Counted from the first letter of the stretch, positions 13,212-32,221 are shown. The stretch is 33,232 nucleotides of DNA from Ignavibacteria bacterium (GCA_041694835.1 JBGFRZ010000050.1:1-33232); one strand, 5' to 3'. Made by a program: numbers and translations. The notes: generated from the letters alone by a model not told the origin.

Positions 13212-13685
<474 letters not shown>

Positions 13686-13689
13686 AGCA

Positions 13690-13905
13690 GAAGATAGGGA
13701 ATAGCAAATAGCGAATAGTGCATAGAAGAGAGAGATGAGAGATGAGAGATGAGGGGTGAGAGGTGAGAGAATAGCGTATAGAGGGTAGAGGATAGAGGAT
13801 AGGGGACAAGGAATTGAATAAAAATTTCCATTCCCTAACCTCTCGTCCCTCGCCTCTGTCCCCTGACTTCTGCTCTTGTGCACTTGTGCCCTGTCCTATT
13901 CTCTG
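13690..13905 (+). repeat. Modular heptamer element, copy A (57-bp core 13801-13857, forward)
   Basis: ATAGC(A/G)A, (A/G)TGAGAG and ATAGAGG arrays, then core AGGGGACAAGGAATTGAATAAAAATTTCCATTCCCTAACCTCTCGTCCCTCGCCTCT, then CTTGTGC arrays. Confidence 0.92.
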
Positions 13906-13921
13906 TTGTTACTGAGGAACT

Positions 13922-14488
13922 ATGGCATTAGATGATCTAATTAAACACATAGAGTCAGAAGCTCATGCTGAAATAGAAAAAATACGCTCTGACGTCCAGA
14001 GGCAATTCGCCGAAATAGAAAAGAGAGCGGAAGAATCCAGACAGAATTTAAAAGAGTCATACGAAAAGAAACTTGCCGAAGCGAAAAAAAGAAAATTGGA
14101 CTCGGCTCTTACGAATGCAAGAATAAAATCAAGGATAGACACTTTGAACTTAAAAAGAAGCATCCTTGACGAGTTTTATGTCAGGCTCTATGAAAGGGTG
14201 GCGTCTTTAGACGAAGAATCAAAAAAGCGCATTTATATAAAAATTCTTTCAACCGTGAAATTTACCGAAAACGCGAAGCTGCTTGTCTCAAAAAAAGAAG
14301 CCGCTTTATGGAAAAAAATCAAGACCCATCTGAAAAAAGCAAAAGTTGAAGAGATGAGTGATTTTGAGGGAGGATTTATCCTGAAGACGGAAAATGCCGT
14401 TTTCGATTACACGATTGAAAACATATTTAAAAACTTTAGGCAAGCTACTGAAATAAAAACAGCCAGAAAACTTTTTCCGGAGAAATAG
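13922..14488 (+). CDS. atpE: V/A-type ATP synthase subunit E
   Basis: Coiled-coil N-terminus (MALDDLIKHI), GGFIL...DYTIE motif, operon position. Confidence 0.88.
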   Translation: MALDDLIKHIESEAHAEIEKIRSDVQRQFAEIEKRAEESRQNLKESYEKKLAEAKKRKLDSALTNARIKSRIDTLNLKRSILDEFYVRLYERVASLDEESKKRIYIKILSTVKFTENAKLLVSKKEAALWKKIKTHLKKAKVEEMSDFEGGFILKTENAVFDYTIENIFKNFRQATEIKTARKLFPEK

Positions 14489-14490
14489 CG

Positions 14491-15471
14491 ATGTCGCACT
14501 ATGCTTATGCATCGGGGATAATAAAAGCTCTCGAGGGCAAGTTGCTGTCAAAGGCGAAACTGCACCAGCTCGCCGAATCCCAAAATGCAGATGAGTTTTC
14601 AAGAAATATATCTGACACGGTTTATAGCGTCGCCGATTCGAGGCTGATTTCCGAGGATTATTTCTTCGGTGTTTTTTCGGAATTAAACAGACTTCAGGCA
14701 AAGTTGATTGCAGAAGAATCCGTGAAAAACATATTTTTAGCCGAGAATACTCTTTTGAATCTGAGAGCGGTATTAAAAAGTATAAAAGAGGGCGTAGAGG
14801 CGCCGGCGAAAGAACTCGTTCCTTCGGCATTTGTCTCTTATGATGCGATGAAAAATTACATCAAAGACGGCAGGTATTTTTTGTTGCCTGATATTTTTGC
14901 GGAGTGCGCCGAGCATGTTCTCAAAAAGATGAAAACTTCTACGCCATTGAAAGTCGACATGAAAATAGACGAGCTCTTTCTCAGATGGGCGCTTTATAGT
15001 GCAAAAAAAAACGAGGATTGTTTCAAATATATAAAAATGCGTATTGATATACTGAACATATTGAATCTCGTTCAAAGAAAGACCTATCATCTTTACGACC
15101 ATCCTAAGCCCATGCACGGCTTATTCATAATTGGCGGGGATATAGATGTCAAGAATTTCATCTCCGCTCTGGATGTGTCGGTAAAACCCGGAGAGTTTTT
15201 AAAGAGGATAAATTTTTTCGATTATTCTCGGAAGTTGGGTGAAATTGCTTACGAAGGTGAATATCTTGCGGATTTTTCACGATTTTACGATGATGCTCAA
15301 ACTTGTTTTTGGAAAAAACTAAAATTCAAGCCATTTGGTTTTCATGTCGTATGCGGTTATGTCAACGCTAAAAAAATAGAGTTGAAGAATTTAAAGATGA
15401 TATACGGGGCGATTAAAAATCGCTATACCCCGGAAGAGATTAAGAAAAATATCAGGGAGTGTTATATTTGA
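14491..15471 (+). CDS. atpC: V/A-type ATP synthase subunit C
   Basis: YAYASGIIKALEGKLL, IDILNI, ELKNLKMI; size and position. Confidence 0.88.
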   Translation: MSHYAYASGIIKALEGKLLSKAKLHQLAESQNADEFSRNISDTVYSVADSRLISEDYFFGVFSELNRLQAKLIAEESVKNIFLAENTLLNLRAVLKSIKEGVEAPAKELVPSAFVSYDAMKNYIKDGRYFLLPDIFAECAEHVLKKMKTSTPLKVDMKIDELFLRWALYSAKKNEDCFKYIKMRIDILNILNLVQRKTYHLYDHPKPMHGLFIIGGDIDVKNFISALDVSVKPGEFLKRINFFDYSRKLGEIAYEGEYLADFSRFYDDAQTCFWKKLKFKPFGFHVVCGYVNAKKIELKNLKMIYGAIKNRYTPEEIKKNIRECYI

Positions 15472-15782
15472 TGAGCAGGATGATTTTTGTCGGCGGCAGG
15501 GATTTTATAAGTATTTTCAAAAACTTCGGCATGGAGACATCACTGTTGGAAAATCAGAATGAGTTTGAAAATATAATCTCCGGTTTGACTAAAGAATACG
15601 CGGTCATTTTCGTTTCAAGGGTTTTTTCCGGGAGTGTTTCTAAATTTTTGGATTTACATCCCGAGCTCAACATAGTTTTGCTTTCCGAGGAGTTCGATAA
15701 AAACGTCGTGATAAAGGATTTTAAGAGTATATCCGAAAAAGCGGCTGGGGTTGATTTGACAGGAAAACTTGAACAACAATGA
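15471..15782 (+). CDS. atpF: V/A-type ATP synthase subunit F
   Basis: TGATG coupling to subunit C. FVGGRDFISIFKNFG...YAVIF...EKAAGVDL. Confidence 0.85.
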   Translation: MSRMIFVGGRDFISIFKNFGMETSLLENQNEFENIISGLTKEYAVIFVSRVFSGSVSKFLDLHPELNIVLLSEEFDKNVVIKDFKSISEKAAGVDLTGKLEQQ

Positions 15783-16525
15783 AAAATGTAAAATTAAAAA
15801 TTGAGACTGTTGACGCTTCGCTAAAACCTTGCCACGGAGTAGGAATAGGACGCAGATTATCGCAGATTTGGTAGATATGTCAATCTTGTCAAAATCGGCA
15901 TTGAGCTGCGTTCAAAAATAAAAAAGCGGAGTAGGAATAGGACGCAGATTTTCGCAGATGAGTTTATAGTTGCTTTAATCTGCGTTTATCAAAGTTGTTT
16001 CTGCGTTTATCTGCGTTCAATTATTTTTTAGGACGCGGATTTACAGGATTATCGCAGATTAAAAACTTTACCACGAAAACACGAAAGTTAGAAATCACGA
16101 AAAATCCCTCTAAATCCCCCCTCCCCCCCTTTATTAAAGGGGGAATAAAAGGGGGATTTAGGGGGAAGCGAAGCAGGGGGATTTACAGTGACTTGTGCAC
16201 TTGTGCTCTTATGCCTTGTGCACTTGTGCAGACCAAGGTCTGCAACTACAAAACTTGTGCTTTGTTGCAAAAAATTTCTTACACATTTCTTTGTGTCTTG
16301 TGTGGTAGAAGAACTTTTTCAATAATCTCATATACATCGGGGAATGCTCCGAACGCAGAAAAATTAGCGAATAGCAAATAGCGAATAGATATATGCAGGC
16401 AATAGGCAATAGGGAATAAGCAATAGTGGCTGGTGGCTCGAAAAAATCAGTAATCGGTGACCAGTAATCAGTAATGGCGCCGTTATTCGTCATCCGTCAT
16501 TTCACTATTTGCTATTTACTGCTTT
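15783..16525. repeat. ~750-bp spacer tiled with several repeat types
   Basis: 33-bp direct repeat (15835-15867 and 15927-15959), CGCAGAT/ATCTGCG inverted arrays, CACGAAA units, a CCCCCTTTATTAAAGGGGG nested palindrome, CTTGTGC 8-mers, a GTAG hairpin and heptamer arrays. Confidence 0.85.
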
Positions 16526-16539
16526 TATTGGAGAATTTT

Positions 16540-18282
16540 ATGGAAGGAATTATCACGAAGGTTTCAGGGCCTCTCGTCGTAGCAAAAGGGCTTTATGGAA
16601 TAAAAATGTTTGATATGGTAAAGGTAGGCGCGCATGGGTTGATAGGCGAAGTTATCGAATTAAAGGAAGACACAGCGGCAATCCAGGTTTACGAGGAAAC
16701 GACCGGCATAGGCCCCGGAGAAAAAGTCGTGTCCGTGGAGCATCCGTTGTCGGTTGAGCTCGGCCCGGGACTTCTCGGAACTATATACGACGGCATACAG
16801 AGGCCTCTTGAAGTAATATATAACGAGAGGGGGGCATGGATCACAAAGGGGGTCGATGTGACGGGGTTGAATCACAGAAAAAAATGGCGTTTCATTCCGC
16901 AGAAATCCTCGGGCGATGAAGTCGTTGGCGGCGATATACTTGGCAGCGTCTCTGAAACAGAAATCGTCAGCCACAAAATAATGGTCCCTATTGGGATTTC
17001 GGGAACAATTAAAAAGATATCGGAAGGCGACTTCCCTGTCGATGAAGTTGTGGTTGTAATTGAGGACGCAAAAGATAAAAAAGATGTACAGATAAATATG
17101 GTTCAGCGATGGCCGGTTCGAATCCCCCGACCGTACAAAGAAAAATTGGCCCCGGACGAACCTCTAATTACCGGTCAGCGCGTGGTTGACACATTCTTTC
17201 CCGTCTCAAAAGGTGGAACGGCTTGCATCCCCGGCCCTTTTGGTTCAGGAAAAACAGTGATACAGCATCAACTCGCGAAATGGTCGGACGCGGACATTAT
17301 AGTTTATGTCGGTTGCGGTGAAAGAGGCAACGAGATGGCCGATGTCCTCCTGGAGTTTCCTCATCTAAAAGACCCAAAGTCCGGCGAACCGCTGATTAAA
17401 AGGACAGTTCTTATCGCGAACACGTCGAACATGCCCGTGGCGGCGCGCGAGGCGTCGGTTTATACGGGCATCACCATAGCGGAGTATTTCAGGGATATGG
17501 GATACAACGTCGCTTTGATGGCGGACTCAACTTCCCGTTGGGCCGAGGCGATGAGAGAGATGTCGGGACGGCTTGAGGAGATGCCAGGTGAAGAGGGTTA
17601 TCCCGCGTATCTTTCGTCGAGGATAGCGGAGTTTTACGAAAGAGCCGGGAAAGTCGTCTGCTGCGCTTCCGATGGAAGGATAGGTTCGCTTTCGGTAATA
17701 GGAGCGGTATCCCCTCCCGGAGGCGATCTTTCCGATCCTGTTGTTCAGGCGACTTTGAGGATAGTAAAAGTATTCTGGTCGCTTGAGGATAAACTCGCGT
17801 ATCAAAGGCATTTTCCTGCGATATCGTGGCTCAGGTCATACTCGCTTTATATCGACAATATAGAAAACTATATGAAAGAAAAAATAGCCAAAAATTTCAT
17901 CGCAAACCGCTCATCCGCGATGAAGATTCTTCAGGAGGAGGCATCGCTTGAGGAAATCGTGCGGCTTGTCGGCGTGGATGCTCTTTCCGACGCAGACCGA
18001 CTTACCCTTGAAACCGCAAAATCTCTGAGAGAAGATTTTCTTCACCAGCATGCTTTCGATCCGGAGGATACCTACTGCGCTCTTGAGAAACAGAACATGC
18101 TTATGGAACTGATTCTTAATTTTCACAAAATGAGGACTTTGGCTGTAGATTCTGGCGCCCCGCTTAAAGCGCATTCGGAGGTAAAAGAGAAGATATCGCG
18201 ATTAAAATATGTTAAGGCAGATGAAACGACACAGAGTATATCCGAGATTAAAAAACAAATTGAAGCGGAACTAAAATCCTAA
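16540..18282 (+). CDS. atpA: V/A-type ATP synthase subunit A
   Basis: P-loop [30 protein letters not shown] precedes ATG 16540. Confidence 0.98.
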
Positions 18283-18362
18283 AATTATGGCTCTTCTCCA
18301 AATGTTGTTGTAACATTGGGTAAGGATTTTGCAATACCGTAATGTATTTTCGCTCATTCTCG

Positions 18363-18417
18363 TCCCGATAAATCGGGAGCGGGGTAATCAAGTGTGAACA
18401 CTTGATTAAACCCGCTC
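18363..18417. repeat. Two adjacent hairpins in the atpA-atpB spacer
   Basis: TCCCGAT-aa-ATCGGGA and GAGCGGG-g-TAATCAAGTGT-ga-ACACTTGATTA-aa-CCCGCTC. Confidence 0.7.
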
Positions 18418-18524
18418 AAACACTTTGTTTTTATACGCACAACAAAAAATGGAGAAGACCCAAAATTGTTAACCGCAGAGAGTGCAGATGAGACAGGGTT
18501 TTTAAGGATTTCATAGGAGCAGAT

Positions 18525-19904
18525 ATGGCATATAAAGAATATTCCACCGTAACGAGCATTTCAGGTCCGATACTTCTCGTCGAAGGAACGGAAGATGTAA
18601 AATACGGAGAGATAGCGCAGATAAAAACGAAATATGGCGAGACAAGAAGAGGAAGGGTTCTTGAGGTGAATGGAGACAAGGCCATGCTCCAGCTTTTCGA
18701 AGGAAGCATGGGACTGAATTTGAGCGAAAGCGCCGTGAGATTTCTGGGGCGCCCTCTTGAGCTCGGTGTTTCGATCGATATGCTTGGCAGGATTTTTGAC
18801 GGGCTCGGAACTCCCATCGATGGTTCAAGCGATATAATCCCCGAGAAAAAAATCGACATTAACGGCGAGCCCCTGAACCCATCCGCGAGGGATTATCCGT
18901 CTGAGTTTATACAAACCGGGATATCGACCATAGACGGTATGAACACACTTGTGAGGGGTCAGAAACTTCCGATATTTTCCGGAGCGGGGCTTCCCCACAA
19001 CGAACTCGCCGCTCAGATAGCGAGGCAGTCGACGGTTCTCGCCAAAAGCGGTTCTTCCGAAGAAAAATTTGCGGTTGTTTTTGCCGCCATGGGCATAACT
19101 TTCGAAGAGGCCGATTTTTTCATAAAGGATTTCAAGTCGACGGGGGCGATAGAGAGGGCGGTTTTGTTTATAAACCTCGCCGACGATCCTGCGATAGAGA
19201 GAATCGCTACCCCGAGAGTCGCTTTAAGCTGCGCCGAATATCTCGCGTTCGAAAAAAACATGCACGTTCTTGTTATAGTAACTGACATGACCAACTACTG
19301 CGAGGCCATCCGACAGGTCTCCGCCGCAAGAAAAGAAGTGCCGGGTCGTCGCGGTTATCCGGGGTATATGTACACCGACCTTTCGACTATTTATGAACGT
19401 GCGGGGCGCCTCAAAAACAAAAACGGCTCGATAACTTTTTTTCCAATTTTGACGATGCCGGAAGATGACAAGACCCACCCTATACCCGATTTGACAGGAT
19501 ACATCACCGAGGGACAGATAATTTTATCGAGGGAACTCCATAGGGCGGGCTTATATCCACCCATTGATGTTCTCCCTTCTTTGTCGCGGCTGAAGGACAA
19601 GGGTATCGGAGACGGAAAAACGAGGGAAGATCACGCCAATGTAACAAGCCAGCTTTTCGCCGCCTACGCGAAAGGAAAAGAGGCTAAAGAGCTTGCTGTT
19701 ATATTGGGAGAAGCGGCTTTAAGCGAGACTGACAAAAAGTTCGCCAAATTCGCCGAGATTTATGAAAACAACTTCGTCAATCAGGGGTTGACGAACAGAA
19801 ATATCGAGGAAACGCTTGCCGCCGGATGGGAGATTCTCAAAAATCTTCCGCGCGAAGAACTTAAGCGCGTAAAACCGGAACAGATTGAAAAGTATATGAA
19901 GTGA
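18525..19904 (+). CDS. atpB: V/A-type ATP synthase subunit B
   Basis: [37 protein letters not shown]. Confidence 0.98.
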
Positions 19905-19911
19905 TAAAGAC

Positions 19912-20190
19912 AAGTAGATAGTAGATAGTAGATAGGGGATTGATTGGTAATCGGTTAACAGTTATCGGTGAAAGATGAGGGATGAGGGGTGAGAGGTCAG
20001 AGGTGAGAGGTGAGAGAATAGCGTATAGAGGATAGAGAATAGAGGATAGGGGACAAGGAATTGAATAAAAATTTCTATTCCCTAACCTCTCGTCCCTCGC
20101 CTCTAACCCATGGTCTCTGTTCTCTGCTCCCTGACCTCCGTCCTCTGTCCTCTGACCTCTGTTCTCTGTCCTCTGGCTTGTGCTCTTGCT
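19912..20190 (+). repeat. Modular heptamer element, copy B (core 20048-20104, forward)
   Basis: AGTAGAT x3, GTGAGAG arrays, 57-bp core (1 substitution vs copy A), CCTCTG(A/T) arrays. Confidence 0.92.
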
Positions 20191-20199
20191 CCGCTGCTT

Positions 20200-20820
20200 A
20201 TGAGATTAAACATAAACCCTAACAGGATGGAGTTGATAAAGCTTAAAAAACGGCTTGTTCTGGCGCGCCGCGGTCACAAGCTTTTGAAAGACAAACAGGA
20301 CGAACTTATGCGGAATTTTATGGAGCTTTTCGAGAGGGTTTACAAAGAGAGGTTCGAAACGGAAAAAGAATACTCTGCCATCAAAAAGGCGCATACTCTG
20401 GCGTCTTCCGTGATGAATCAGGCAGAAATTTTCGCAGCGACGGTTTGGAAGAAGATAAGCATAAAATTCGAATCGGTTTTAAAACAGCTTTTCAATCTGC
20501 GCGTTCCCGACTATAAAATTGAGATAACTGGCGAAGCAATATGGTGGAGCCCCTCGTATGTTCCCATGGAACTGGACGATATTTTTGAGAGGTTCAAAAA
20601 TTTTCTGCCGAGGTTTGTGAAACTCGCCGGCGACGAAAAGACATTAAGACTTCTCGCCGAAGAAATCGAACGCACAAGACGTCGCGTTAACGCCCTTGAG
20701 TATATACTGATTCCGAATATTCTTGAGACGATAAAATACATATCCATGCGCCTTTCGGAAAACGAGCGATCCGACCTTGTGAGACTTATGAAGGTTAAAG
20801 AGATAGTAAGAAGCCACTGA
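20200..20820 (+). CDS. atpD: V/A-type ATP synthase subunit D
   Basis: INPNRMELIKLKKRL..ARRGHKLLKDKQDEL, TRRRVNALEY. The upstream in-frame extension is repeat-derived. Confidence 0.96.
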   Translation: MRLNINPNRMELIKLKKRLVLARRGHKLLKDKQDELMRNFMELFERVYKERFETEKEYSAIKKAHTLASSVMNQAEIFAATVWKKISIKFESVLKQLFNLRVPDYKIEITGEAIWWSPSYVPMELDDIFERFKNFLPRFVKLAGDEKTLRLLAEEIERTRRRVNALEYILIPNILETIKYISMRLSENERSDLVRLMKVKEIVRSH

Positions 20821-20834
20821 TGGATATTGATAAA

Positions 20835-21150
20835 GCAGTAGAGTAGTAGAGCACAAGGGCACAAGGGCACAAGAGCACAAGTCAGAGGACAGAGTACAGA
20901 GGTTAGAGGCGAGGGACGAGAGGTCAGGGAATGGAAATTTTTATTCAATTCCTTGTCCCCTATCCTCTATTCTCTATACGCTATTCTCTCATCTCTCACC
21001 TCCGAATATCTCTATTTGCTATCCACTATTTGCTATATGTCATAAGCCATATGCTATACGCTTTCCGTTTCCCGCTTTCCGTTTTTCCTTGTCTACTATG
21101 TACCATCTGCTATCTACTATTCTCTTGCTTCTTTCCTCTTTTCTCTTTTG
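20835..21150 (-). repeat. Modular heptamer element, copy C (core 20905-20961, reverse)
   Basis: GCACAAG 8-mers, CAGAGG arrays, reverse-complement core, then TTTGCTA and CGCTTTC arrays overlapping the 5' end of the next gene. Confidence 0.9.
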
Positions 21151-22373
21151 CCGCAGAACTAAGGGTCTATTATGTCGCCGTCGGACAGGGCGATGCGATA
21201 TATATGGAACTACCCAACGGCGAGAACGTCCTTATCGACGGAGGCCCCAACAGTTCAAATTCCACCAATAACCCGCTGATATACTTCCTTGAAAGTAAAA
21301 ACATAAAAAAAATAAATCATGTTATTCTTTCACATCCTCACGCCGACCACTATGCAGGTTTGGGGCCGGCATTTGACAGATATGAAATCAAAAGATATTA
21401 TGATTCATTTTTGCTTGGCAGTTCTGCGGCGCAATCGTTCCGCAGCAAGGCGACAAGCGAACCGGGAGTAACCGTCGTCAACACGATGGATTATTCGTCT
21501 GGCTATACTTTCACATGGTCGACCACCACCCCGAAAGTAGAAGCGGTTATGCTTCATCGCGGCGACGCATTCGGGCAAACTCCTCCGTCGGCGAACGATG
21601 TGTCGCTCGTCTTTAGAGTTGTTTTTGGTTCATCAACTTTCATATTTGGCGGAGATGCCGGCGGCAGTGGCGGTTCATATAAAAATCTTGAAGGTTGGAT
21701 GGCGGGCACTTATGGCGGTGGTGTAGAGTCCGATTGCTATAAAGTTCACCATCATGGAAGTGCGTCGTCTTCCAGCGATTCGAATTTTATGTCGAAGTTA
21801 AACCCCAGATATGCGTTTATCGGCACCGACGGGATAAAATACGGCCATCCAACCATAATCTCTATGGACAATATAAATGTATATACAAGCAAGGCGGAAG
21901 AAAAAATCGTTCAGGAGATAAAAGGCAAGATATATACGAACATCTACCCCACCTATCTGAACGGAAATATAATGGTTGGAACATCGGGCGACGGGAAATA
22001 TAAAATCCAGACGAATTACGCTCCGACTCCAATAGACACAACTCCGACCGGAGACATCGTGGACATCCCCCCCGCTGAAAGAAAGACGCTTGGTTATGTC
22101 AATGCCGTCAACAATAAGTTTAATCCTGAAACCGAGTCAATGACCATCGAATATCTGCTCAATAAATCCGGGGAGAGTGTTTTTAGGGTTTATACGCTCG
22201 CTGGCGAAGTCGTCTATGAAGACAAAGTTCAAAATGTCCCCGCCGGTTCTCCGCTCCGATGGAATTGGAATGGCAGGAATTCTAACGGAGAAATGGTCGC
22301 TTCGGGAGCTTATTTTGTTTTTGTAAAAACACCGGAAGGCAAAGAAGTTAGAAAAGCGGTGGTAATGAGATGA
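20931..22373 (+). CDS. Exported ComEC/Rec2-like MBL-fold metallo-hydrolase with a C-terminal FlgD-Ig-like domain (start uncertain, 20931 or 21051)
   Basis: VGQGDAI, LIDGG, SHPHADH, KVHHHGS, YGHP. C-terminal FNP...VYTLAGEVV...WNGRNSNGEMVASGAY. Confidence 0.85.
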   Translation: MEIFIQFLVPYPLFSIRYSLISHLRISLFAIHYLLYVISHMLYAFRFPLSVFPCLLCTICYLLFSCFFPLFSFAAELRVYYVAVGQGDAIYMELPNGENVLIDGGPNSSNSTNNPLIYFLESKNIKKINHVILSHPHADHYAGLGPAFDRYEIKRYYDSFLLGSSAAQSFRSKATSEPGVTVVNTMDYSSGYTFTWSTTTPKVEAVMLHRGDAFGQTPPSANDVSLVFRVVFGSSTFIFGGDAGGSGGSYKNLEGWMAGTYGGGVESDCYKVHHHGSASSSSDSNFMSKLNPRYAFIGTDGIKYGHPTIISMDNINVYTSKAEEKIVQEIKGKIYTNIYPTYLNGNIMVGTSGDGKYKIQTNYAPTPIDTTPTGDIVDIPPAERKTLGYVNAVNNKFNPETESMTIEYLLNKSGESVFRVYTLAGEVVYEDKVQNVPAGSPLRWNWNGRNSNGEMVASGAYFVFVKTPEGKEVRKAVVMR

Positions 22374-23845
22374 ACAAAACAGGGTATAGTGAAATGAAGA
22401 CAGAAGACAGAGGTCAGAGGTCAGAGAACAGAGGACAGAGGTCAGAGAACAGAGGTCAGAGGTCAGAGAACAGAGGACAGAGGACAGAGGTCAGAGGTCA
22501 GAGAACAAATGACAGAGGACAGAGGACAGAGGACAGAAAACGGGAAGCGGGAATAGAAGAACGCAAAGCGGAAAGCGTAAAGGGTGAACGGCTTTTAACT
22601 CTTTCCGCTTCCCGCTTTCCGCTTTACGGCATTTTATTCTCTCATCTCTCATCTCTCATCTCTCACCTCTCTCTTCTATGCACTATTCGCTATTTGCTAT
22701 TCGCTCTCCCATGTCTTTACGGGGCGGGGACCACCGTCGGAGACGTCCTGAATTTGAATACTTCCATTAGGGCTATTTCGCTTGGCAAAACCCATCTTTT
22801 TAATTCAGAAGTGGGCGGCAATCCAGCGCTCATTGATGACAGGAATACCGTAGCTTTTAAATTTAACACCTCTCCGTTGGGTGTCCGGATTTTTGATATA
22901 GGCGGAAAGATGTCGTATGGCAGTTTTACTTTTGGAGCAGGAATAATTAATCAAAATGCCGGAAATATAGAGATTTACAAGCCACCTTTCGAGGATAATC
23001 CCGAAGTAAAATTCGTGAAAAATCTTCAAAACGATTTGATATTGACGGCGGTTTCGGCATATAGAGTAAACAGAATATTTCATGTTGGATTAAATATAAG
23101 GCATCTTAACACGAAGATTCTTGAGAACTACACTATGGATGCCACGGCTTTTGATTTAGGAATGGCTGTTAAATCAGGTAAGTTTAACCTCGCTTTTTTG
23201 TTAAAAAATCTTGGCTCGAAAGCTTCTTATAGTTATTCTAATGAAAAATTTCCGCTGGCTGCTGTGCATTCTTTCGGCGTAGGATTTTTTCCTTCGTATT
23301 TTGGTATAATCTTTTCAGCCGACAATGAGAACGAGAGGAAACAAACATTATTCAGGACCGGCATAGAGTGGAATCTCCCCGACGAAAAGATATATCCGCT
23401 CAACACACTTGCAATTAGAGGCGGATATTCGCAAAGGGGTGCGAAATTTAATTTTTCAAATTTTACATTTGGATTTTCTATGGGATTTTCATCGGTGCTT
23501 TTCGAGTATGCTCTCTCTCCACTTGACGATGTCGGACTCTCGCATAATCTCGGATTGTCTTACAGATTTGGCCACAAGACTAAAATACCGGAATCCAAGA
23601 TCAAAGAGAGGGTCATGATTGAATTTGTCGCAGGAAATATCGACGATAAATCGTTCGCAAAACTCGAAGATACGGCGCAACTTTTGAAAGAGTCGCCGCA
23701 TTACAGCGTAAAACTGGAGGGACATCTTGATTTGACCGACAAAATCGTTGATTATTTTGTGAGCTCCGAGCGGATTGCGGAATCGCGCATTATAGTTGAA
23801 GAAAAAGAAACCACTTATGTCATTATAACGCTTATAGAAAAGTAA
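22370..23845 (+). CDS. PorV/PorQ-like outer-membrane beta-barrel protein with a degenerate OmpA-like C-terminus
   Basis: LNLNTSIRAISLG...NPA, alternating beta strands, AIRGGY...FEYA...HNLGLSYRFG, then LEDTAQLLKESP...LEGH. The N-terminus is encoded by heptamer arrays. Confidence 0.65.
   Translation: MNKTGYSEMKTEDRGQRSENRGQRSENRGQRSENRGQRTEVRGQRTNDRGQRTEDRKREAGIEERKAESVKGERLLTLSASRFPLYGILFSHLSSLISHLSLLCTIRYLLFALPCLYGAGTTVGDVLNLNTSIRAISLGKTHLFNSEVGGNPALIDDRNTVAFKFNTSPLGVRIFDIGGKMSYGSFTFGAGIINQNAGNIEIYKPPFEDNPEVKFVKNLQNDLILTAVSAYRVNRIFHVGLNIRHLNTKILENYTMDATAFDLGMAVKSGKFNLAFLLKNLGSKASYSYSNEKFPLAAVHSFGVGFFPSYFGIIFSADNENERKQTLFRTGIEWNLPDEKIYPLNTLAIRGGYSQRGAKFNFSNFTFGFSMGFSSVLFEYALSPLDDVGLSHNLGLSYRFGHKTKIPESKIKERVMIEFVAGNIDDKSFAKLEDTAQLLKESPHYSVKLEGHLDLTDKIVDYFVSSERIAESRIIVEEKETTYVIITLIEK
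22396..22710 (-). repeat. Heptamer element inside the 5' coding region
   Basis: Long CAGAG(G/A)(T/A) array, GCGG(G/A)AA array and its complement, TCTCATC array, and CTATGCACTATTCGCTATTTGCTATTC (reverse complement of the copy A left arm). Confidence 0.9.
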
Positions 23846-26800
23846 TGGAACGCTCTAATTTCGTACATCTTCATAATCACACGGAATACTCTCTCCTTGA
23901 CGGGGCCTGCCGCATCTGGGACGAAAAAAAACCCTCGGAGCTTTTTAAGATAGTTTCAAACAAATACAAAATGAGTTCGCTTGCGATTACCGACCATGGG
24001 AATATGTTTGGAGCGATAGAGTTTTATGACGCGTGTTTAGAGTCGGGAATAAAGCCGATAATCGGCTGCGAGGCATATGTCGCCAAAGGCTCCCGCTTTA
24101 ACAAGGAACCGAAGTCGTATTCGGGCAATTATCACCTCACGCTCATCGCTCAGAACAACGTCGGATACAGGAATCTGATGAAGCTTGCGAGCATAGCTTA
24201 TACCGAAGGCTTTTACAGAAAACCGAGAATAGATTTTGAAGTACTGAAGAATCACTCCGAAGGTATTATCTGCCTTTCGGGTTGCTTGCAGGGGGAAATT
24301 CCGCAGGCTGTATTGGAAAACAAGAATGACGAGGCGAGGGCGTTGATCGGAAAATATAAAGAACTTTTCGGAAGAGAGAGATTTTATCTTGAACTGATGA
24401 ATAATGGCATGGAGGAGCAGCGCAAGGTAATAAAAAAACTCATGGAGTTTTCAAAAGAACTTGATGTCAAAGTTGTCGCCACTAATGACTGCCATTATTT
24501 GCACAAAGCGGATGCTCCGCTGCATGAAATTCTTTTGTGCGTAGACACCGGGACCACCCTCGACGATAAAAAGAGGCTCAAATTTTCCACGGACGAATTT
24601 TACTATCGCTCGCCCGAAGAGATGACGGAACTCTTCAAAGAGAACCCGTCTGCGATTCAAAACACGCTGAAAATATCCGATATGTGTGCGGTCGAGCTGA
24701 ACATGGGACAGTTTTTACTGCCTCACTACAGTGTCCCCGACGCCTTCACGCCGATTTCATATCTCGAAAAACTTTGCATAGAAGGGTTTAAAAACAGGTA
24801 CAAAAACCCTACCGACGAACATCATACGCGACTCAAAAAAGAACTCGCGACGATAGAGAAAATGAACTTTGCAGAATACTTTCTTATTGTCTGGGATTTC
24901 ATAGATTTCGCGAAAAAAAACAACATTCCTGTGGGCCACGGCAGAGGCTCTGGCGCCGGTTCCATAGTGGCGTATGTCCTGAACATCACAAACATTTGTC
25001 CAATAAAATACGGTCTTTTGTTTGAGAGATTTCTAAATCCCGACAGGCGCACGATGCCGGATTTGGACATTGACTTTGCGGACACCGGCCGCGACAAAGT
25101 GATAGAGTATGTCAGAGATAAATACGGCTCGGATCGCGTCGCCCAGATTATCACTTACAGCGCCATGCAGGCGCGCTCGGCAGTCAAGGACGTGGCCAGG
25201 GTCATGGGTGTCTCCGCAACGGACGCGAACAAACTCGCATCAATGATACCTCACACGGGGATAACTATATACGAAGCCGTCCACAAAGTGAGCGAACTTA
25301 AAAAAATATACCAGATGGACGATCGAATAAAAAAACTTTTCGACGCCGCTTCCAGAATTGAGGGGCTGAAAAGACATACCGGGATACACGCGGCGGGTGT
25401 GGTCATAGCCAAGGACGACATCACAAATTACGTTCCTATGGCGGTTTCGAAAAGATGCGACTCGGCTACGGTGACCCAGTATGACGGCGATTCTCTTTTG
25501 AAGCTCGGGCTTCTGAAAATTGACATACTCGGGATAAAAACTCTCAGCGTCATAGACGAATGCAAAAAGCTCATTAAAGAAAGACACGGCGTTGATATAA
25601 ACGACATCGCGTTTGACGATCAAAAAACTTTTAAGCTCTTCAAGGAGGCAAGCACATTGGGGGTTTTTCAGCTTGAGTCCTCGGGTATGCGGGATCTTCT
25701 CAGGAAGCTTAAGCCGACTAACATAGAAGATATAATAGCTCTTATTTCCCTCTACAGGCCGGGCCCAATGGGGGCGGGCATGCTTGATGACTTTGTCGCA
25801 AGAAAACACAAAAAAGTGAAAATTATTTACGATCATCCGTTGATGGAGCCCATACTCAGCGACACATACGGCGTTATTTTGTATCAGGAACATGTTATGA
25901 AGATAGCCCAGACGCTTGCGGGTTTTTCCGCCGGACAAGCCGACACGTTAAGGCGCGCTATGAGCAAAAAAGTCCTGGAGGAGATGGATAAACTCGAAAA
26001 CGAATTTGTTTGCGGATGCAAAAAAAATTCCATCGAGCCGAAAACTGCGAAAAAGATATTTGAGCAAATCAAATTCTTCGCGGGATACGGCTTCAACAAA
26101 AGTCATGCGGCGGCTTATGCGATACTTGCCTATGAAACGGCACATCTTAAAGCCAACTACACGATAGAATTTATGACGGCGTTGATAAATTCCGAGATAG
26201 GGAGAACTTCCAAGAAGGAAGAAGACAACAAGATTGTTACTTATTTGAGGGAGTGTGAAAACTACGGGATTTCGATATTGCCTCCATCTGTGAACGCTTC
26301 AAACGAGGTTTTTGCGATAGAAGGGAAAGATAAAATAAGATACGGACTTCTTGCAGTCAAAAATGTCGGCGAGGGCGCTGCCCGTCGTATAGTTGAAATC
26401 AGAAAGGGAGAAAAATATAAAGGCCCGTATGATTTTATGGTGAGGGCAATGTCGCATCACTTAAACAGAAGGAGCATAGAGTCCCTCGTAAAAGCGGGCG
26501 CTTTTGATGAATTCGGCGTAAATCCCGGAGCGATGCGAGGGGAGTTCCTCGCCAAGTTGGACAAATATATCGAGATTTCATCCAGCATAAATTCGAATGG
26601 CGGCGTTGGTTCGCTTTTGTTCGATTTCAAGGAGTCAGAGCCTAAAATAAATGTGGAGTTCAGAAATTTAAGCGAGCACGAATGTCTTCAGCAGGAAAAA
26701 GAGGTACTTGGGTGCTATCTTTCGGGGCATCCGCTGGCCAAATACGAAAACGAATTACTCAAATACTCGACTTGCAGAATCGCAGACCTTAATTCTGAGA

Positions 26801-27321
26801 ATCCGCCACGGGGCATCGTAAAAGTTGCCGGCATTGTAGAAAACGTGAAGCAGTTGATATCGAAAAAGGCTCAAAACGCCTATGCAAGATTTTTGCTCGA
26901 AGACACTGAAACTGATATAGAGGTGGTAATCTTTCCGAAAAATTACAAAAACGCCCTGGCACAAAAAGTCGTCAGCGGCAATATGATTGTGGTAAAAGGA
27001 AGACTCAACGACAGAGAAACAAGAGAAATCATAGCCGAAGACATAATGACGCTTGAAGAAGCCAGAAAAAACATACCAGTTAGATACGACTCCTTAACGA
27101 TAAAACTCGTTTCGGCGGGTCTTGAAGAAGATTTACTAATGAGGCTTAAAAAAATGTTTTTCAGTCACCCCGGCGATACAAAAGTTTATCTCGAGGCAAT
27201 GTCTCTGACGGGTTCAAAATACTCGATAGATCCCGAAATAAACGTTAAAGTGGACAAGACGTTTTGCGAAAACTTACAGAAGCTCGTCGGCGACGAAAAC
27301 GTGGTTTTGACAAAAGAATAA
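23845..27321 (+). CDS. dnaE: DNA polymerase III alpha subunit
   Basis: PHP domain HLHNHTEYSLLDG, GRGSGAGS, PDLDIDF, YGFNKSH, OB fold. Confidence 0.98.
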   Translation: MERSNFVHLHNHTEYSLLDGACRIWDEKKPSELFKIVSNKYKMSSLAITDHGNMFGAIEFYDACLESGIKPIIGCEAYVAKGSRFNKEPKSYSGNYHLTLIAQNNVGYRNLMKLASIAYTEGFYRKPRIDFEVLKNHSEGIICLSGCLQGEIPQAVLENKNDEARALIGKYKELFGRERFYLELMNNGMEEQRKVIKKLMEFSKELDVKVVATNDCHYLHKADAPLHEILLCVDTGTTLDDKKRLKFSTDEFYYRSPEEMTELFKENPSAIQNTLKISDMCAVELNMGQFLLPHYSVPDAFTPISYLEKLCIEGFKNRYKNPTDEHHTRLKKELATIEKMNFAEYFLIVWDFIDFAKKNNIPVGHGRGSGAGSIVAYVLNITNICPIKYGLLFERFLNPDRRTMPDLDIDFADTGRDKVIEYVRDKYGSDRVAQIITYSAMQARSAVKDVARVMGVSATDANKLASMIPHTGITIYEAVHKVSELKKIYQMDDRIKKLFDAASRIEGLKRHTGIHAAGVVIAKDDITNYVPMAVSKRCDSATVTQYDGDSLLKLGLLKIDILGIKTLSVIDECKKLIKERHGVDINDIAFDDQKTFKLFKEASTLGVFQLESSGMRDLLRKLKPTNIEDIIALISLYRPGPMGAGMLDDFVARKHKKVKIIYDHPLMEPILSDTYGVILYQEHVMKIAQTLAGFSAGQADTLRRAMSKKVLEEMDKLENEFVCGCKKNSIEPKTAKKIFEQIKFFAGYGFNKSHAAAYAILAYETAHLKANYTIEFMTALINSEIGRTSKKEEDNKIVTYLRECENYGISILPPSVNASNEVFAIEGKDKIRYGLLAVKNVGEGAARRIVEIRKGEKYKGPYDFMVRAMSHHLNRRSIESLVKAGAFDEFGVNPGAMRGEFLAKLDKYIEISSSINSNGGVGSLLFDFKESEPKINVEFRNLSEHECLQQEKEVLGCYLSGHPLAKYENELLKYSTCRIADLNSENPPRGIVKVAGIVENVKQLISKKAQNAYARFLLEDTETDIEVVIFPKNYKNALAQKVVSGNMIVVKGRLNDRETREIIAEDIMTLEEARKNIPVRYDSLTIKLVSAGLEEDLLMRLKKMFFSHPGDTKVYLEAMSLTGSKYSIDPEINVKVDKTFCENLQKLVGDENVVLTKE

Positions 27322-27493
27322 AAAATATGTAGAATAAGAATAGAGCACAAGGCACTAAAGAATAGTAGACGGTAGCGAGTAAACAGGGATTTGAAAAATG
27401 CCCCTATCTAGACAACTCGCTTATGTTCTACTGCGCTATTGTTCCATTTTTCTTATTTTTTCTTGTTTTTAACTTTTCAAAGGGAGGATTATT

Positions 27494-28483
27494 ATGAACA
27501 GACTCATTTTTGCTTTGTTTGCTGTTGTTATTTTTATTTCATCGGTTTTTTCGCAAGCATCAACTGCGCCCGTAGTTCAGGTGGTTGATCCAGTTGTTGA
27601 AAACATATCCAAATTAAAGGCCAAAGATCCAATGGTAAGACGGCAGGCTGCCGAATCCCTTGGGAGTTTGAGAGATGCAAAAGCCGTCAATCCGCTTATG
27701 GCTGCATTGAAGGATGAAAGCCCTTTCGTAAGAATGGCGGCGATAGATTCCCTCGGCCTTTTGCGAGCCTCATCCGCCGTTGAAAAAATCGGAGAGATTC
27801 TTTTAAACGATAAAGAATCTCAGATAAGACAAAGCGCCGCCATATCGCTGGGATACATAGGCGTGCCTGAGATATCGGAATATTTGATAAAAGCGCTGAA
27901 AGACAAAGAACCGGGTGTCAAATACGCAGCGGCGTCTTCTCTTGGTCAAATCCGCTCTGAGGATGCCGTTTCGGCCTTAACCGAGGCTCTCTCGGATCCC
28001 GACAGCGGAATGAAAAGAAGCGTTTTGGCGACTCTTGAAAGGCTGGACGCCTCGATAGCAGTTCCAAGGGCAAGAGCTCTCCTTTTCGACACAGACCCAT
28101 CGGTGAGGTCGCTTGCGGCGAAATTTGTCGGCAAGTTCAAGGATGCGGAAAGCCGTCAGAGTCTCGCCGAGATTCTGAAAGACAAAAATAACTCGGTTGT
28201 GATAAACGCCGCTTACGCACTGGGAAGGATAGGCGATACATCGGGATTTCAGGCGGTGTCTAAAATTGTAAAATCCGAAAAGGACACGGCCATTAGAATG
28301 GCTTCTATAGAGGCGCTTGAAGCGATAGGGACAAAAGACGCCATAAACGTTATCAGAGAGATGCTCAATGACCCACACGACTATGTTAAGAATTCAGCAA
28401 AATATACATTGATGAGGATGAGAGTTCCCATTGAAGATCCAAAAAAAACCGACCCAACGCGAAAAGCCCCTCCTCGGAGGTAA
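27494..28483 (+). CDS. Secreted HEAT-repeat protein
   Basis: Classical signal peptide MNRLIFALFAVVIFISSVFSQA, repeated D..VR.AA..LG motifs, GGGAGG RBS. Confidence 0.9.
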   Translation: MNRLIFALFAVVIFISSVFSQASTAPVVQVVDPVVENISKLKAKDPMVRRQAAESLGSLRDAKAVNPLMAALKDESPFVRMAAIDSLGLLRASSAVEKIGEILLNDKESQIRQSAAISLGYIGVPEISEYLIKALKDKEPGVKYAAASSLGQIRSEDAVSALTEALSDPDSGMKRSVLATLERLDASIAVPRARALLFDTDPSVRSLAAKFVGKFKDAESRQSLAEILKDKNNSVVINAAYALGRIGDTSGFQAVSKIVKSEKDTAIRMASIEALEAIGTKDAINVIREMLNDPHDYVKNSAKYTLMRMRVPIEDPKKTDPTRKAPPRR

Positions 28484-28490
28484 ATGACAA

Positions 28491-29447
28491 ATGTTAGAAC
28501 AGCAGAGCACAAGGGCGCAAGAACACAAGTGCATAAGTGCACAAGGGCACAAGGTAGAAGAGCACAAGAGCACAAGTGCACAAGGTACAAGAGCAGAGGA
28601 CAGAGGACAGAGAACAGGGGAGAGAGGACAGAGGACAGAGGTTAGAGGCGAGGGACGAGAGGTCAGGGAATGGAAATTTTTATTCAATTCCTTGCCCCCT
28701 AGCCTCTATTCTCTATACGCTATTCTCTCATCTCTCACCTCTCACCTCTCGCCTCTGTGCACTATTCGCTATTTGCTATTCGCTCTTCTTATTTCTTACT
28801 TCATACCTCTTACCTCTCGCAGTATTTATGCATGGGAAATCGTGGATATCCCCACGACGGAACCCGTCGATGCCTATACCTATCGGCTCGGTTTCAGGCT
28901 TTACTCGGACGGCGGCGTAATGACGCGCACAACTTTCGGGGTTTTCAGAAACATAAACATTGGCTTTGCATGGGATCTTAAAAATTTAATCGGAGTAAAG
29001 AACATAGAAATGATACCCCCGTCGGTGCATCTGAAAATTTTGATTTACGAAGGCAGTAAACACCTCCCTTCTTTCGCCATCGGCTACGACGGACAGGGTT
29101 ATTACTGGAACAAAGACGAGCAGGGTTATCGGGAGAAGGAAAAAGGGGTTTTTGTCGTGCTGTCGAGGGAGGTTTTCACTCCGAATCTTGAGCTGACGGC
29201 TGGTGCCAATGTCAACGATTTCAGAAAAAGTACCGTCCACGGCTTTGCGGGGATTTCATACATGATAGAAAAACTTTCATTTTTGATTGAATACGATAAC
29301 CTGCGCGACGAGAAGTTCCATCGATTGAATGGGGGTATCAGGTTTGCCGTCATACCGGAACTTAATTTTGAATTTGTCGGAAGAAACATGGCAAAAAGTG
29401 AAAATGCAGAAAGAGTCCTTAAGGTCAACTATATAGGAAGATTTTAA
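28491..29447 (+). CDS. YjbH-like outer-membrane protein (start uncertain)
   Basis: IVDIPT, LPSFAIGYDGQG, FLIEYD, LNGGIRF and a terminal F are typical of beta-barrels. The N-terminal ~110 aa are repeat-encoded. Confidence 0.7.
   Translation: MLEQQSTRAQEHKCISAQGHKVEEHKSTSAQGTRAEDRGQRTGERGQRTEVRGEGREVREWKFLFNSLPPSLYSLYAILSSLTSHLSPLCTIRYLLFALLISYFIPLTSRSIYAWEIVDIPTTEPVDAYTYRLGFRLYSDGGVMTRTTFGVFRNINIGFAWDLKNLIGVKNIEMIPPSVHLKILIYEGSKHLPSFAIGYDGQGYYWNKDEQGYREKEKGVFVVLSREVFTPNLELTAGANVNDFRKSTVHGFAGISYMIEKLSFLIEYDNLRDEKFHRLNGGIRFAVIPELNFEFVGRNMAKSENAERVLKVNYIGRF
28500..28815 (-). repeat. Modular heptamer element, copy D (core 28644-28700, reverse)
   Basis: GCACAAG 8-mers, CAGAGGA arrays, reverse-complement core, TCTCACC and TTTGCTA/TTCGCTA arrays. 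Confidence 0.92.
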
Positions 29448-29455
29448 GCTTTTAT

Positions 29456-30439
29456 ATGAAACATGGGCTTGAGTTTGAAAAACCAATCTTCGAGCTGGAA
29501 GAAAAAATTGTTTCGTTCAAGAATTCTCCATCCTCTCCGCCGCTGAACTTTAAGAAAGAGGTTGAATCGCTCGAAGAAAAATGCAATAAATTGAAAAAAG
29601 AAATATATGGCAATCTGTCGCCGTGGCAGAGGGTACAGCTTGCCCGTCATCCAAAACGGCCATACTTCATGGACTATGTCCCACATCTTTTCAACGAATT
29701 TTTGGAACTTCACGGGGACCGGAGTTTTGCCGACGATAAATCGATAGTGACTGGCATAGGGATAATAGGCAATTTTTCCTGCACGATAGTCGGTCATCAA
29801 AAAGGAAGGAACATAGATGAAAATCTTGTCAGAAACTACGGCATGGCTAATCCGGAGGGCTACAGGAAGGCCCTAAGGGTAATGAAACTCGGCGAAAAGT
29901 TCGACATGCCCGTGTTGACTTTTATAGATACGCCCGGCGCCTACCCCGGCATAGGCGCCGAGGAAAGGGGCCAGTCGGAAGCCATAGCGAGAAACCTCAA
30001 AGCCATGTCCTCCATGGAAGTTCCGATAATAGCGACGGTAATAGGAGAAGGCGGCAGCGGCGGAGCCCTCGGAATAGGTGTGGCCGATAGAATTTTAATG
30101 CTCGAAAACGCGTACTACTCCGTAATCAGCCCAGAAGGATGTTCCGCTATTTTGTTTAAGGACATCTCTCGTGCCGAAGAGTCCGCGGCAGCTTTGAAAA
30201 TCACAGCTGCGGAACTTATAAAACTTGGAGTTATAGATGAAATTATACCGGAGCCACTCGGAGGGGCAGATAAAGATCCCGCCGTGGCCGCAGCGATGCT
30301 CAAGTCGGCTTTGCTGAAAAACATTAAACCCCTGCTTGAACTCGACAAGGAAAAACTCATCAAGCAAAGATATCAGAAGTACAGAAATATCGGCGAATTT
30401 AAAAAGAGCAGAGGTAAAAGGGTAGAAGGTAAAAGGTAG
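29456..30439 (+). CDS. accA: Acetyl-CoA carboxylase carboxyltransferase alpha subunit
   Basis: ARHPKRP, PEGYRKALR, IDTPGAYPG, GEGGSGGALG, YSVISPEG. Confidence 0.97.
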   Translation: MKHGLEFEKPIFELEEKIVSFKNSPSSPPLNFKKEVESLEEKCNKLKKEIYGNLSPWQRVQLARHPKRPYFMDYVPHLFNEFLELHGDRSFADDKSIVTGIGIIGNFSCTIVGHQKGRNIDENLVRNYGMANPEGYRKALRVMKLGEKFDMPVLTFIDTPGAYPGIGAEERGQSEAIARNLKAMSSMEVPIIATVIGEGGSGGALGIGVADRILMLENAYYSVISPEGCSAILFKDISRAEESAAALKITAAELIKLGVIDEIIPEPLGGADKDPAVAAAMLKSALLKNIKPLLELDKEKLIKQRYQKYRNIGEFKKSRGKRVEGKR

Positions 30440-30660
30440 AAGAAAGAAGTAAAAAGAGCGAATAGCGAATAGTGCATAGAAGAGAGAGGTGAGAGGAGAG
30501 AGATGAGAGAATAGCGTATAGAGAATAGAGGATAGGGGACAAGGAATTGAATAAAAATTTCCATTCCCTAACCTCTCGTCCCTCGCCTCTAACCTCTGAC
30601 CTCTGACCTCTGCTCTTGTACCTTGTGCACTTGTGCTCTTGTGCTCTTATGCACTTGTGT
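30408..30660 (+). repeat. Modular heptamer element, copy E (core 30534-30590, forward)
   Basis: Begins within the accA 3' end. Core is identical to copy A. CCTCTGA and CTTGTGC arrays follow. Confidence 0.92.
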
Positions 30661-30680
30661 ATTAACAACCGGAGGATATC

Positions 30681-31831: not shown

Positions 31832-32221
31832 ATGAAAGAAGAACTCGGATTTTTGAGGAAGAGAGCTGATAAATTTCGTAAATATGCCGATGATGCATTC
31901 AAAAAAGGCGATTATGACATGGCCGCATTTAACACAGAACAATCGTTGCAACTCTATCTTAAATACACATTGGGAATGTTGTTGGGTGATTTCCCAAGAA
32001 CGCACAGCATATCGCGTTTGCTTAATAATATATCGAAGGCAAGCGGAGACAAAACTTTTTCGGCATTTGTGGAAAAAGAGCCCAACATAGTTTCTAATTT
32101 GGAAGAAGTATATCTCACCGCGCGTTATCTCCCGTCGGAATTTACCGAAAAACAGGTGGCAAAACTCATCGCTTTTTCCGAAAACGTTCTTAAAAAGTTG
32201 AAAACACTATGGAGTTGGTAG
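31832..32221 (+). CDS. HEPN domain protein
   Basis: YDMAAFNTEQSLQLYLK, FPRTHSI, YLTARY. Confidence 0.9.
   Translation: MKEELGFLRKRADKFRKYADDAFKKGDYDMAAFNTEQSLQLYLKYTLGMLLGDFPRTHSISRLLNNISKASGDKTFSAFVEKEPNIVSNLEEVYLTARYLPSEFTEKQVAKLIAFSENVLKKLKTLWSW

Follow-up and report, generated by a model that had tools for sequence, protein, structure and literature searches.

A contig of 33,232 nucleotides from the draft genome of an Ignavibacteria bacterium (JBGFRZ010000050.1; this whole stretch is called the window in the following) holds five copies of a repeat element in which ordered blocks of short tandem units surround a conserved core. We consider it probable that these copies belong to a young subfamily of gene-less foldback cassettes, specific to this genome, which behaves as a miniature non-autonomous element. 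The analyzed genome, G000, is a 1.9-Mb draft of 89 contigs that is 97% complete, with the window as contig C75. An earlier reading of the window (the original prediction) had described the copies as a recently spreading non-autonomous element at gene boundaries.

Twelve nearly identical copies of the core in one genome

All five cores listed in the original prediction were recovered, i.e., at 13801 (+, no mismatch), 20048 (+, one), 20905 (−, one), 28644 (−, two) and 30534 (+, none), and the 57-bp sequence had no match in 100 dinucleotide-preserving shuffles. We counted copies in G000 by short-word BLAST and then by a profile search. BLAST retrieved 10 full-length cores at an identity of at least 96.5% and two more that aligned over 44 of the 57 bases. 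The profile search gave 12 copies at 79.9–86.6 bits, with the next best match at 49.5 bits; diverged relatives of the core, at this score and below, lie on contigs C5, C40, C11, C28, C63, C47 and C30. The number of five is hence correct for the window, which alone holds five of the 12 copies on its 33 kb, and has to be raised to 12 plus several diverged copies for the genome. Identity among the cores is 96–100%.

The 57-bp core proved to be part of a longer conserved unit. An alignment of the 12 copies placed the invariant unit at about 86–90 bp, extending about 29 bp to the left of the core. The whole element measures about 200–320 bp; four copies are sense and eight are antisense to their neighboring genes. 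On the element strand, every window copy starts with (AATAGCG)n and (GTGAGAG/ATGAGAG)n, followed by a fixed GAATAGCGTATAGAG(A/G)ATAGAGGAT, the core, (CCTCTGT/CCTCTGA)n and finally (CTTGTGCN)n. The predicted block order was thus found throughout, with unit numbers in the arms that vary between sites. Tandem Repeats Finder listed the arrays of these arms and many further ones in the window. Arm variants are common to copies on different contigs, e.g., those at 13801 and at C56:31510. The two outer blocks, AATAGCG and CTTGTGC, are correlated in unit number over the 12 copies (Spearman rho 0.76, p 0.004). The two arms are complementary to 70–83% over 28–61 nt, and their words differ. As expected from the original prediction, the + strand reads purine-rich and then pyrimidine-rich whichever way a copy is oriented, i.e., purine fractions are 0.53–0.81 in the left 150 nt and pyrimidine fractions 0.53–0.76 in the right 150 nt, on either strand.

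The five window copies are placed as follows. Gene calls behind the placement of copies, and behind the cassette polarity and frame counts given below, came from our own crude codon-usage caller.

Copy 1, 13690..13905, + strand, sense: core 13801–13857; fills the spacer between the V-ATPase K (13215–13685) and E (13922–14488) genes.
Copy 2, 19913..20190, + strand, sense: core 20048–20104; between the V-ATPase B (18525–19904) and D genes.
Copy 3, 20845..21150, − strand, antisense to the genes: core 20905–20961; after the atpD stop codon (20820).
Copy 4, 28504..28817, − strand, antisense to the genes: core 28644–28700; wholly within the open reading frame (ORF) 28491..29447.
Copy 5, 30405..30665, + strand, sense: core 30534–30590; between accA (29456–30439) and the class II fructose-bisphosphate aldolase gene (fba, 30681–31673).

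The outermost purine array of copy 5 overlaps the last accA codons. At copy 2, the V-ATPase D match begins at residue 31 of ORF 20110, which places the true start near 20197; from this alignment, ORF 20110 extends V-ATPase D upstream through the pyrimidine arm.

The element is absent from related genomes

We compared G000 with 40 related genomes, i.e., two of the same family (G001 and G002) and 38 of the same class. G001 and G002 belong to another genus, and their proteins are 59–83% identical to those of the window. The core was found in none of the 40 genomes. An exact match to its 23-nt apex was present neither in genome_contigs nor in metagenome_contigs, two collections from which records of the genome itself have possibly been left out. 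V-ATPase B as a query returned 80 loci, mostly of Bacillota and at 68–75% identity, which were of no help for orthologous spacers or taxonomy.

G001 and G002 keep the gene order atpK-E-C-F-A-B-D, MBL-fold gene and PorV-like gene, and G001 additionally keeps the order of dnaE, a HEAT-repeat gene, ORF 28491, accA and fba. In the comparison of orthologous spacers that the original prediction had proposed, the spacers of G001 and G002 are short and contain neither the core nor heptamer arrays. The atpK–atpE spacer measures about 38 bp in G001 vs 236 bp in the window, and the accA–fba spacer about 70 bp vs about 240 bp. Moreover, arrays of period 7 or 8 cover 837 and 462 bases in two window stretches, compared with 49, 145 and 0 bases in the orthologous stretches. 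Because the core was not found in the 40 relatives and the orthologous spacers are free of the element, we conclude that it was gained or amplified in the G000 lineage.

Sense copies lie in spacers, antisense copies can be read in frame

The two strands of the element differ in their stop codons. Over 162 nt around the core, none of the 36 sense frames was stop-free (1–7 stops each), compared with 18 of the 36 antisense frames. All four sense copies are intergenic (13801, 20048, 30534 and C28:43132). Four of the eight antisense copies lie in the 5′ ends of ORFs:

20905, − strand: gene of the secreted MBL-fold protein (ORF 20931..22373).
28644, − strand: ORF 28491..29447.
C61:15311, antisense: lipoprotein gene.
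C55:35976, antisense: gene of an M6-type peptidase with a C-terminal sorting-type domain.

The statement that all copies sit at gene junctions consequently applies to the sense copies, and has to be modified for those at 20905 and 28644, which overlap 5′ coding ends. Likewise, a targeting of gene boundaries is too narrow a description, given that the 5′ ends of exported-protein genes contain four of the 12 copies in frame.

The mature parts of all four host proteins align with relatives that bear an ordinary signal peptide or lipobox at this position. In copy 3, half of the + strand is in frame with the MBL-fold protein, for which Pfam gave Lactamase_B and a C-terminal sorting-type domain. In-frame ATG codons are found at 20931, within the core, and at 21051. 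The pyrimidine arrays encode a hydrophobic leader ending in CLLCTICYLLFSCFFPLFSFA, directly followed by AELRVYY; the G001 orthologue has an ordinary signal peptide ahead of AELKVYY. Copy 4 lies between the start codon of ORF 28491, which follows the stop of the upstream gene by 8 nt, and the signal-peptide end (TSRSIYA before WEIVDI). The protein of this ORF starts with M and about 90 cassette residues and continues with YLLFALLISYFIPLTSRSIYA and WEIVDIP. Among the collected proteins, its closest homologue P0002 (72% identical) starts with MKKTFVVLSIFLCSLFRITSSIYA followed by WELVDIP, and P0002, P0003, P0004 and the G001 orthologue all have short, ordinary signal peptides. The ATG beside the upstream stop was retained, with the frame open through the whole cassette, in ORF 28491, the C61 lipoprotein gene and the PorV-like ORF 22370, which contains a related cassette (see below). 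ORF 20931 and the C55 peptidase gene have an ATG in frame within the reversed core.

We also analyzed cassettes in general, defined as a purine-rich array paired with a pyrimidine-rich array at most 160 nt apart. Among 87 cassette–gene pairs, the gene's own frame was open through the cassette to an ATG at most 150 nt upstream in 22, whereas an ATG of this kind was reached in four of 174 control frames (Fisher p 2e-8, odds ratio 14). Eleven further cassettes were in frame inside genes. The open-frame examples listed were mostly PorV-like barrels, lipoproteins and secreted enzymes. By simple arithmetic, tandem 7-mers encode one heptapeptide repeat in all three frames. The repeats are charged or polar when translated from purine arrays, and rich in L, F, S, I, Y and C when translated from pyrimidine arrays. 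The frame counts indicate that translation may pass through whole cassettes, which would then form the leading part of signal peptides.

Two related observations concern genes across G000. Many PorV-like barrel genes have a leader in which pyrimidine heptamers encode the hydrophobic part, with CLYA or CLYG recurring at its end (e.g., C52:45322, C55:36358, C41:5933, C6:2511 and C79:29999); in two of these genes, a PF05635 cassette sits directly upstream and supplies the leader array as its right arm. Also, cytoplasmic housekeeping genes contain 11 complete purine-then-pyrimidine cassettes in frame (e.g., C6:8914–9105, C28:56978–57244, C49:19586–20850 and C51:2034–2112); judged by their N-terminal sequences, GltX, HisF, ValS and CarB appear to be among these genes.

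The core family shares arm words with gene-carrying cassettes

In G000, Tandem Repeats Finder reported 800 period-7 and 403 period-8 rows. The arrays are strongly polar, i.e., 126 purine-then-pyrimidine pairs (122 without shared partners) were found vs two in the reverse order. G000 also has 15 matches to PF05635 (S23p, four-helix bundle), 12 of them full length, compared with 0–5 in each of the 40 relatives, and one PF13366 (GxxExxY) gene. Among the 13 small cargo genes (12 PF05635 and one PF13366), all but one were seen by eye to lie between complementary 7/8-mer arms with a purine-rich 5′ arm; the thirteenth is interrupted by a contig end. Several of the gene-carrying cassettes use words of the core element, namely AATAGCG/CTATTCG and AGAGCACA/CTTGTGCT.

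The arms of the core element, purine-rich tandem 7/8-mers on the 5′ side and pyrimidine-rich ones on the 3′ side, are hence those of a PF05635-type cassette. The center is different. It is occupied by the 57-bp hairpin instead of a gene, and none of the 15 PF05635 matches lies within a core element. Moreover, the core family has a fixed center and arms of differing words that are only 70–83% complementary. The original prediction could not assign the element to a named family; with arm words shared with PF05635 cassettes, it can be placed among the heptamer-armed foldback cassettes of G000.

The original prediction had also suggested a search for copies with a cargo gene, and none was found. 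The only candidate, a half core on C35 fused to the last bases of the C7 PF05635 gene, was rejected: it gives no link between core and cargo because the shared 118 nt are the end of a multi-copy insertion sequence, on C35 placed in the loop of a core element. The same stretch of at least 118 nt ends contigs C7, C17, C35, C48, C60, C70 and C79, each time after a different A/T-rich flank, and is probably the end of a multi-copy insertion sequence with an unassembled interior. On C35 this end lies just after rplB, and on C7 it clips the 3′ end of the PF05635 gene.

Predicted RNA hairpins and a possible intercistronic role

The window elements are predicted to fold as one long imperfect hairpin centered on the GGAAT…ATTCC stem of the core. 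Against dinucleotide shuffles, z-scores on the element strand were −4.3, −4.0, −2.1, −6.4 and −9.3 for copies 1 to 5, i.e., from −2.1 to −9.3, in agreement with the earlier view that the arms can partly fold back. The other strand gave −4.4, −1.5, −0.3, −4.6 and −5.0.

Such hairpins, if co-transcribed within an operon, could be functional between cistrons as 3′ stabilizers, as partial terminators or as processing sites for RNase III. They would then tune the relative expression of neighboring cistrons, for example of V-ATPase K vs E or B vs D. Repetitive extragenic palindromic (REP) sequences and bacterial interspersed mosaic elements (BIME), Correia elements and rRNA intervening sequences (IVS) work as intercistronic or processing hairpins. 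Three window copies are sense and sit exactly between co-oriented cistrons, and their predicted hairpins are long and more stable than shuffles. G000 also has a heptamer-armed hairpin of the same style in its 23S rRNA. This partial rRNA (C31:13294–16492, with features at about 3085–3005 on the − strand and at 2434–2922) contains two group I introns (RF00028, 69.7 and 54.4 bits) and an extended, IVS-like hairpin without a gene, whose inner arms are (AGGTAGA)n and (CCCTCTA)n. Moreover, the same-family relatives have unrelated hairpins at the atpB–atpD junction (z −7.1 and −3.1), as has G001 a stable one at atpF–atpA (z −4.5), so that a hairpin may be wanted there.

On the other hand, the atpK–atpE and accA–fba spacers of the relatives have no significant hairpin (z −1.2, −0.4 and −1.4), and eight of 12 copies are antisense with a weaker fold, four of these in coding sequence. 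Regulatory signals were also missing from the cores. A promoter in the core, proposed by eye (TTGAAT, 16 nt, TAACCT), was discarded because a consensus scan gave no site in any core; promoter-like sites numbered 28 compared with 30.5 ± 5.6 in shuffles, and one of them, on the − strand, touches the left edge of copy 1. A terminator role was rejected as well, as none of 27 terminator-like sites lay in a core and totals were not above shuffles; one site lies in the octamer arm of copy 4. Finally, neither the window nor six further loci had an Rfam match at the gathering score, and up to E = 1 only microRNA-precursor hairpin models far below threshold were listed. We hence regard an intercistronic function as a serious alternative explanation of the family, but as an unlikely one.

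Further arrays and genes in the window

Two array features of the window resemble the arms of the core element:

22399..22705, + strand: cassette of the same class with another center, i.e., (GACAGAG)x20, an inner GGAAAGC/CTTTCCG hairpin and (CTCTCAT)n(CTATTCG)n.
16191..16475, + strand: arrays ahead of V-ATPase A, i.e., (ACTTGTGC)n, about 130 nt of unique sequence and (TAGCGAA)n(AGGCAAT)n(AATCAGT)n, which reach the start codon of atpA.

The PorV/PorQ-like ORF 22370..23845 contains the first of these in frame within its initial 118 codons, with the 20-unit array at 22399–22537; the G001 and G002 orthologues have ordinary signal peptides in its place. The words of the second are the same as in the arms of the core element.

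Three other observations were made in the window. In the long spacer between a V-ATPase F-like ORF and atpA, a motif of about 20 nt, GGACGCAGATT(A/T)TCGCAGAT, is present several times at 15810–16100, together with its complement; it recurs near the core copy on C52 and has no Rfam match. At 2947–3109, the purine arrays AGAGGAC x6.4 and AGGTCAA x4.1 are in frame in a GHMP-kinase gene (2836..3774), where they add RGERTENRGQRSEV near the N-terminal domain. At 31832–32559, a HEPN-domain gene and an MNT-type nucleotidyltransferase gene overlap by a few bases, a pair that looks like a HEPN-MNT toxin-antitoxin module.

Discussion

The reading that we favor, a genome-specific subfamily of gene-less foldback cassettes behaving as a miniature non-autonomous element, may be described as follows. 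A fixed center of about 86–90 bp, with a small hairpin and an AT-rich loop, is enclosed by shells of purine 7-mers on the 5′ side and of pyrimidine 7- and 8-mers on the 3′ side. The core family is part of the same population as the PF05635-carrying cassettes. Whole units, including the inner arm shells, may have been copied to new sites by a process at the DNA level, and the arms may later have lengthened or shortened by slippage. Copies would persist where they are harmless, and their orientation would set where this is the case. As every frame of the sense strand contains TAG or TGA, this strand would be confined to true spacers, where transcription along with the neighboring genes would yield a long hairpin. 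The antisense strand is largely stop-free and encodes first a hydrophilic and then a hydrophobic repeat, so that it can fit in frame between a start codon and the signal-peptide cleavage region.

Several results weigh against this reading. We saw no inverted terminal repeats with defined ends and no termini common to the copies. No target-site duplication was visible in the flanks of the 12 copies, for which the empty sites, being from another genus, are too diverged to fix the junctions. As the nearest genomes compared are of another genus, insertion points could also not be mapped to the base, and a true empty-site allele was missing. A cognate enzyme was not found either. The original prediction correctly saw no transposase in the window, i.e., no transposase family matched among the 30 window ORFs scanned. 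The single PF01797 match to a Y1 transposase in G000 (C41:8754–9467) has neither arrays nor the core in its 500-nt flanks, and a PF00078 reverse transcriptase was not found in the 97%-complete draft. The end of the multi-copy insertion sequence gave only chance matches of 7–8 nt with the five window elements. Since terminal repeats, target duplication and a cognate enzyme were not seen, we infer mobility from the distribution of the copies. Of the recently spreading non-autonomous element first proposed, the dispersed, gene-less family of 96–100% identity that is not found in relatives is supported, and its spreading is the inferred part.

The orientation and structure arguments have limits, too. 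The split of in-ORF copies by orientation, four of eight vs none of four, is not significant (Fisher p about 0.14, hand calculation). At the diverged C5 copy, the upstream extension of an ORF through the core is evidently an artefact, as the start of ComM lies past the core; an open frame alone therefore proves nothing. A strict structural constraint is weakened by the antisense strand, which folds less well (z −0.3 to −5.0), and by the inner-block counts on the two sides, which do not co-vary (rho 0.21). Together with the co-varying outer blocks, the inner-block counts agree with shells that occur jointly or not at all, and with independent slippage of the arms.

A more far-reaching version would see the heptamer-armed cassettes as portable leader modules instead of passive junk, placed after the start codon and ahead of the hydrophobic core of a signal peptide. 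The export of dozens of surface and secreted proteins would be controlled by a switch in which one 7-nt slip toggles the frame and pairing of the arms gates initiation. A dedicated mechanism linked to the expanded PF05635 genes would spread the cassettes, with the core family as the currently active gene-less form. We think that this version is unlikely to be correct.

Alternatively, the cassettes in 5′ coding ends might be contingency or translation-control modules of the secretome, in which a 7-nt slip toggles the frame and an arm hairpin gates initiation. The 22 pairs with a whole cassette between ATG and mature part would agree with this, as many of them are PorV-like, lipoprotein or secreted-enzyme genes. 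So would arrays that reach 20 units (22399–22537) and a heptapeptide repeat that is the same in all frames, so that a slip alters only the downstream part. However, sense copies in housekeeping operons cannot act in this way, and the consensus frames, which are mostly 'on', are equally expected from selection for intact genes. We hence judge this explanation quite improbable. Collapsed or chimeric repeats that were placed at several sites by the assembly are extremely improbable: a 7/8-mer array lies within 150 nt of 22 of the 178 contig ends in this 89-contig draft, so the arrays do break the assembly, but each of the 12 copies is 2.7–33 kb away from a contig end and is flanked by unique syntenic genes, arm lengths and point differences are individual to each copy, and in four of them a long reading frame is kept that continues into a conserved protein.

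The subfamily favored here is young and countable, and its unique center makes copies distinguishable from arrays that arose in place. G000 moreover offers near-absolute arm polarity and gene-carrying relatives beside gene-less ones. If mobile, the element would be a small mobile DNA without the usual hallmarks; if translated, it would be an example of low-complexity DNA becoming an export signal. Annotation of such genomes is prone to errors around these cassettes, in start codons as well as in signal peptides.

Comparison with known repeat systems

The original prediction compared the element with the short tandemly repeated repetitive (STRR) sequences of cyanobacteria. The likeness holds for the construction from tandem heptamers. 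It does not extend to the units, which we take to be different from those of STRR sequences, or to the gene content, as a V-type ATPase, PorV-like barrels and C-terminal domains of the type IX secretion system type point away from cyanobacteria. One homologue of 37% identity is assigned by NCBI to an Elusimicrobia bacterium, a weak hint to Elusimicrobiota. Tandem 7-mers concentrated between genes are common to the core element, STRR sequences and the Calothrix heptanucleotides, the Nostoc GGGGA(C/T)T repeats, the Xanthomonas repeats and the TAACTGA repeats. Some bacteria have an excess of heptamer repeats. In Xanthomonas, 70–75 convergent pairs of GGGAATC heptamers form potential stem-loops, and the same passages state that no detailed literature on heptamer repeats exists (Rehm 2015, PMC4692102). 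TAACTGA repeats of Beggiatoaceae contain stops in the forward direction and are translatable in reverse, according to passages of MacGregor (2015, PMC4679880). As far as described in these parts of the reports, the known heptamer repeats consist of one unit type, without a conserved unique center or an ordered series of units, and neither gene-carrying versions nor a systematic use in coding signal peptides are mentioned. Among the papers listed in literature searches, none was seen to describe ordered heptamer shells with a conserved center or PF05635 genes between heptamer arms.

Like REP/BIME and REPIN-RAYT systems, the core element is an intergenic palindromic repeat in operons, for which roles in mRNA stability have been proposed. 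REP sequences are short, GC-rich palindromes tied to RAYT; in contrast, the core element is long, has an AT-rich apex and is built of arrays, and no repeats accompany the sole Y1 transposase homologue. With the IVS of 23S rRNA and the PF05635 cassettes, it shares the long imperfect hairpin, the purine 5′ arm and the pyrimidine 3′ arm. Different from an IVS, which is inserted in a 23S helix and cut out by RNase III, all 12 copies are found in protein-gene contexts, i.e., in mRNA operons or coding 5′ ends, without a gene and with a fixed center of 86–90 bp.

Among inverted-repeat transposable elements of miniature size (MITEs), the core element resembles foldback repeats in being small, multi-copy, transposase-less and present in both orientations. 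It lacks their defined terminal inverted repeats, as its arms are low-complexity tandem arrays of variable length. A matching autonomous element, i.e., a parent insertion sequence with the same ends, was not found in G000, where the interior of the sole multi-copy insertion sequence is unassembled. Correia/NEMIS, ERIC, YPAL/RU-2 and RPE repeats are multi-copy elements of 100–300 bp that occur in both orientations and give stable stem-loop transcripts, as stated in passages of Delihas (2007, PMC2229807). Unlike these, the core element was seen without defined terminal inverted repeats, TA ends or target duplication. The same passages describe MITE-like repeats with a stop-filled form in intergenic regions and an open form fused in frame to genes, a Yersinia element that forms part of a signal peptide (YPO1552), and the in-frame insertion of RPE in conserved genes. 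The core element shares with these RPE- and YPAL-type palindromes a putative in-frame fusion in conserved genes, found by alignment for four of its 12 copies.

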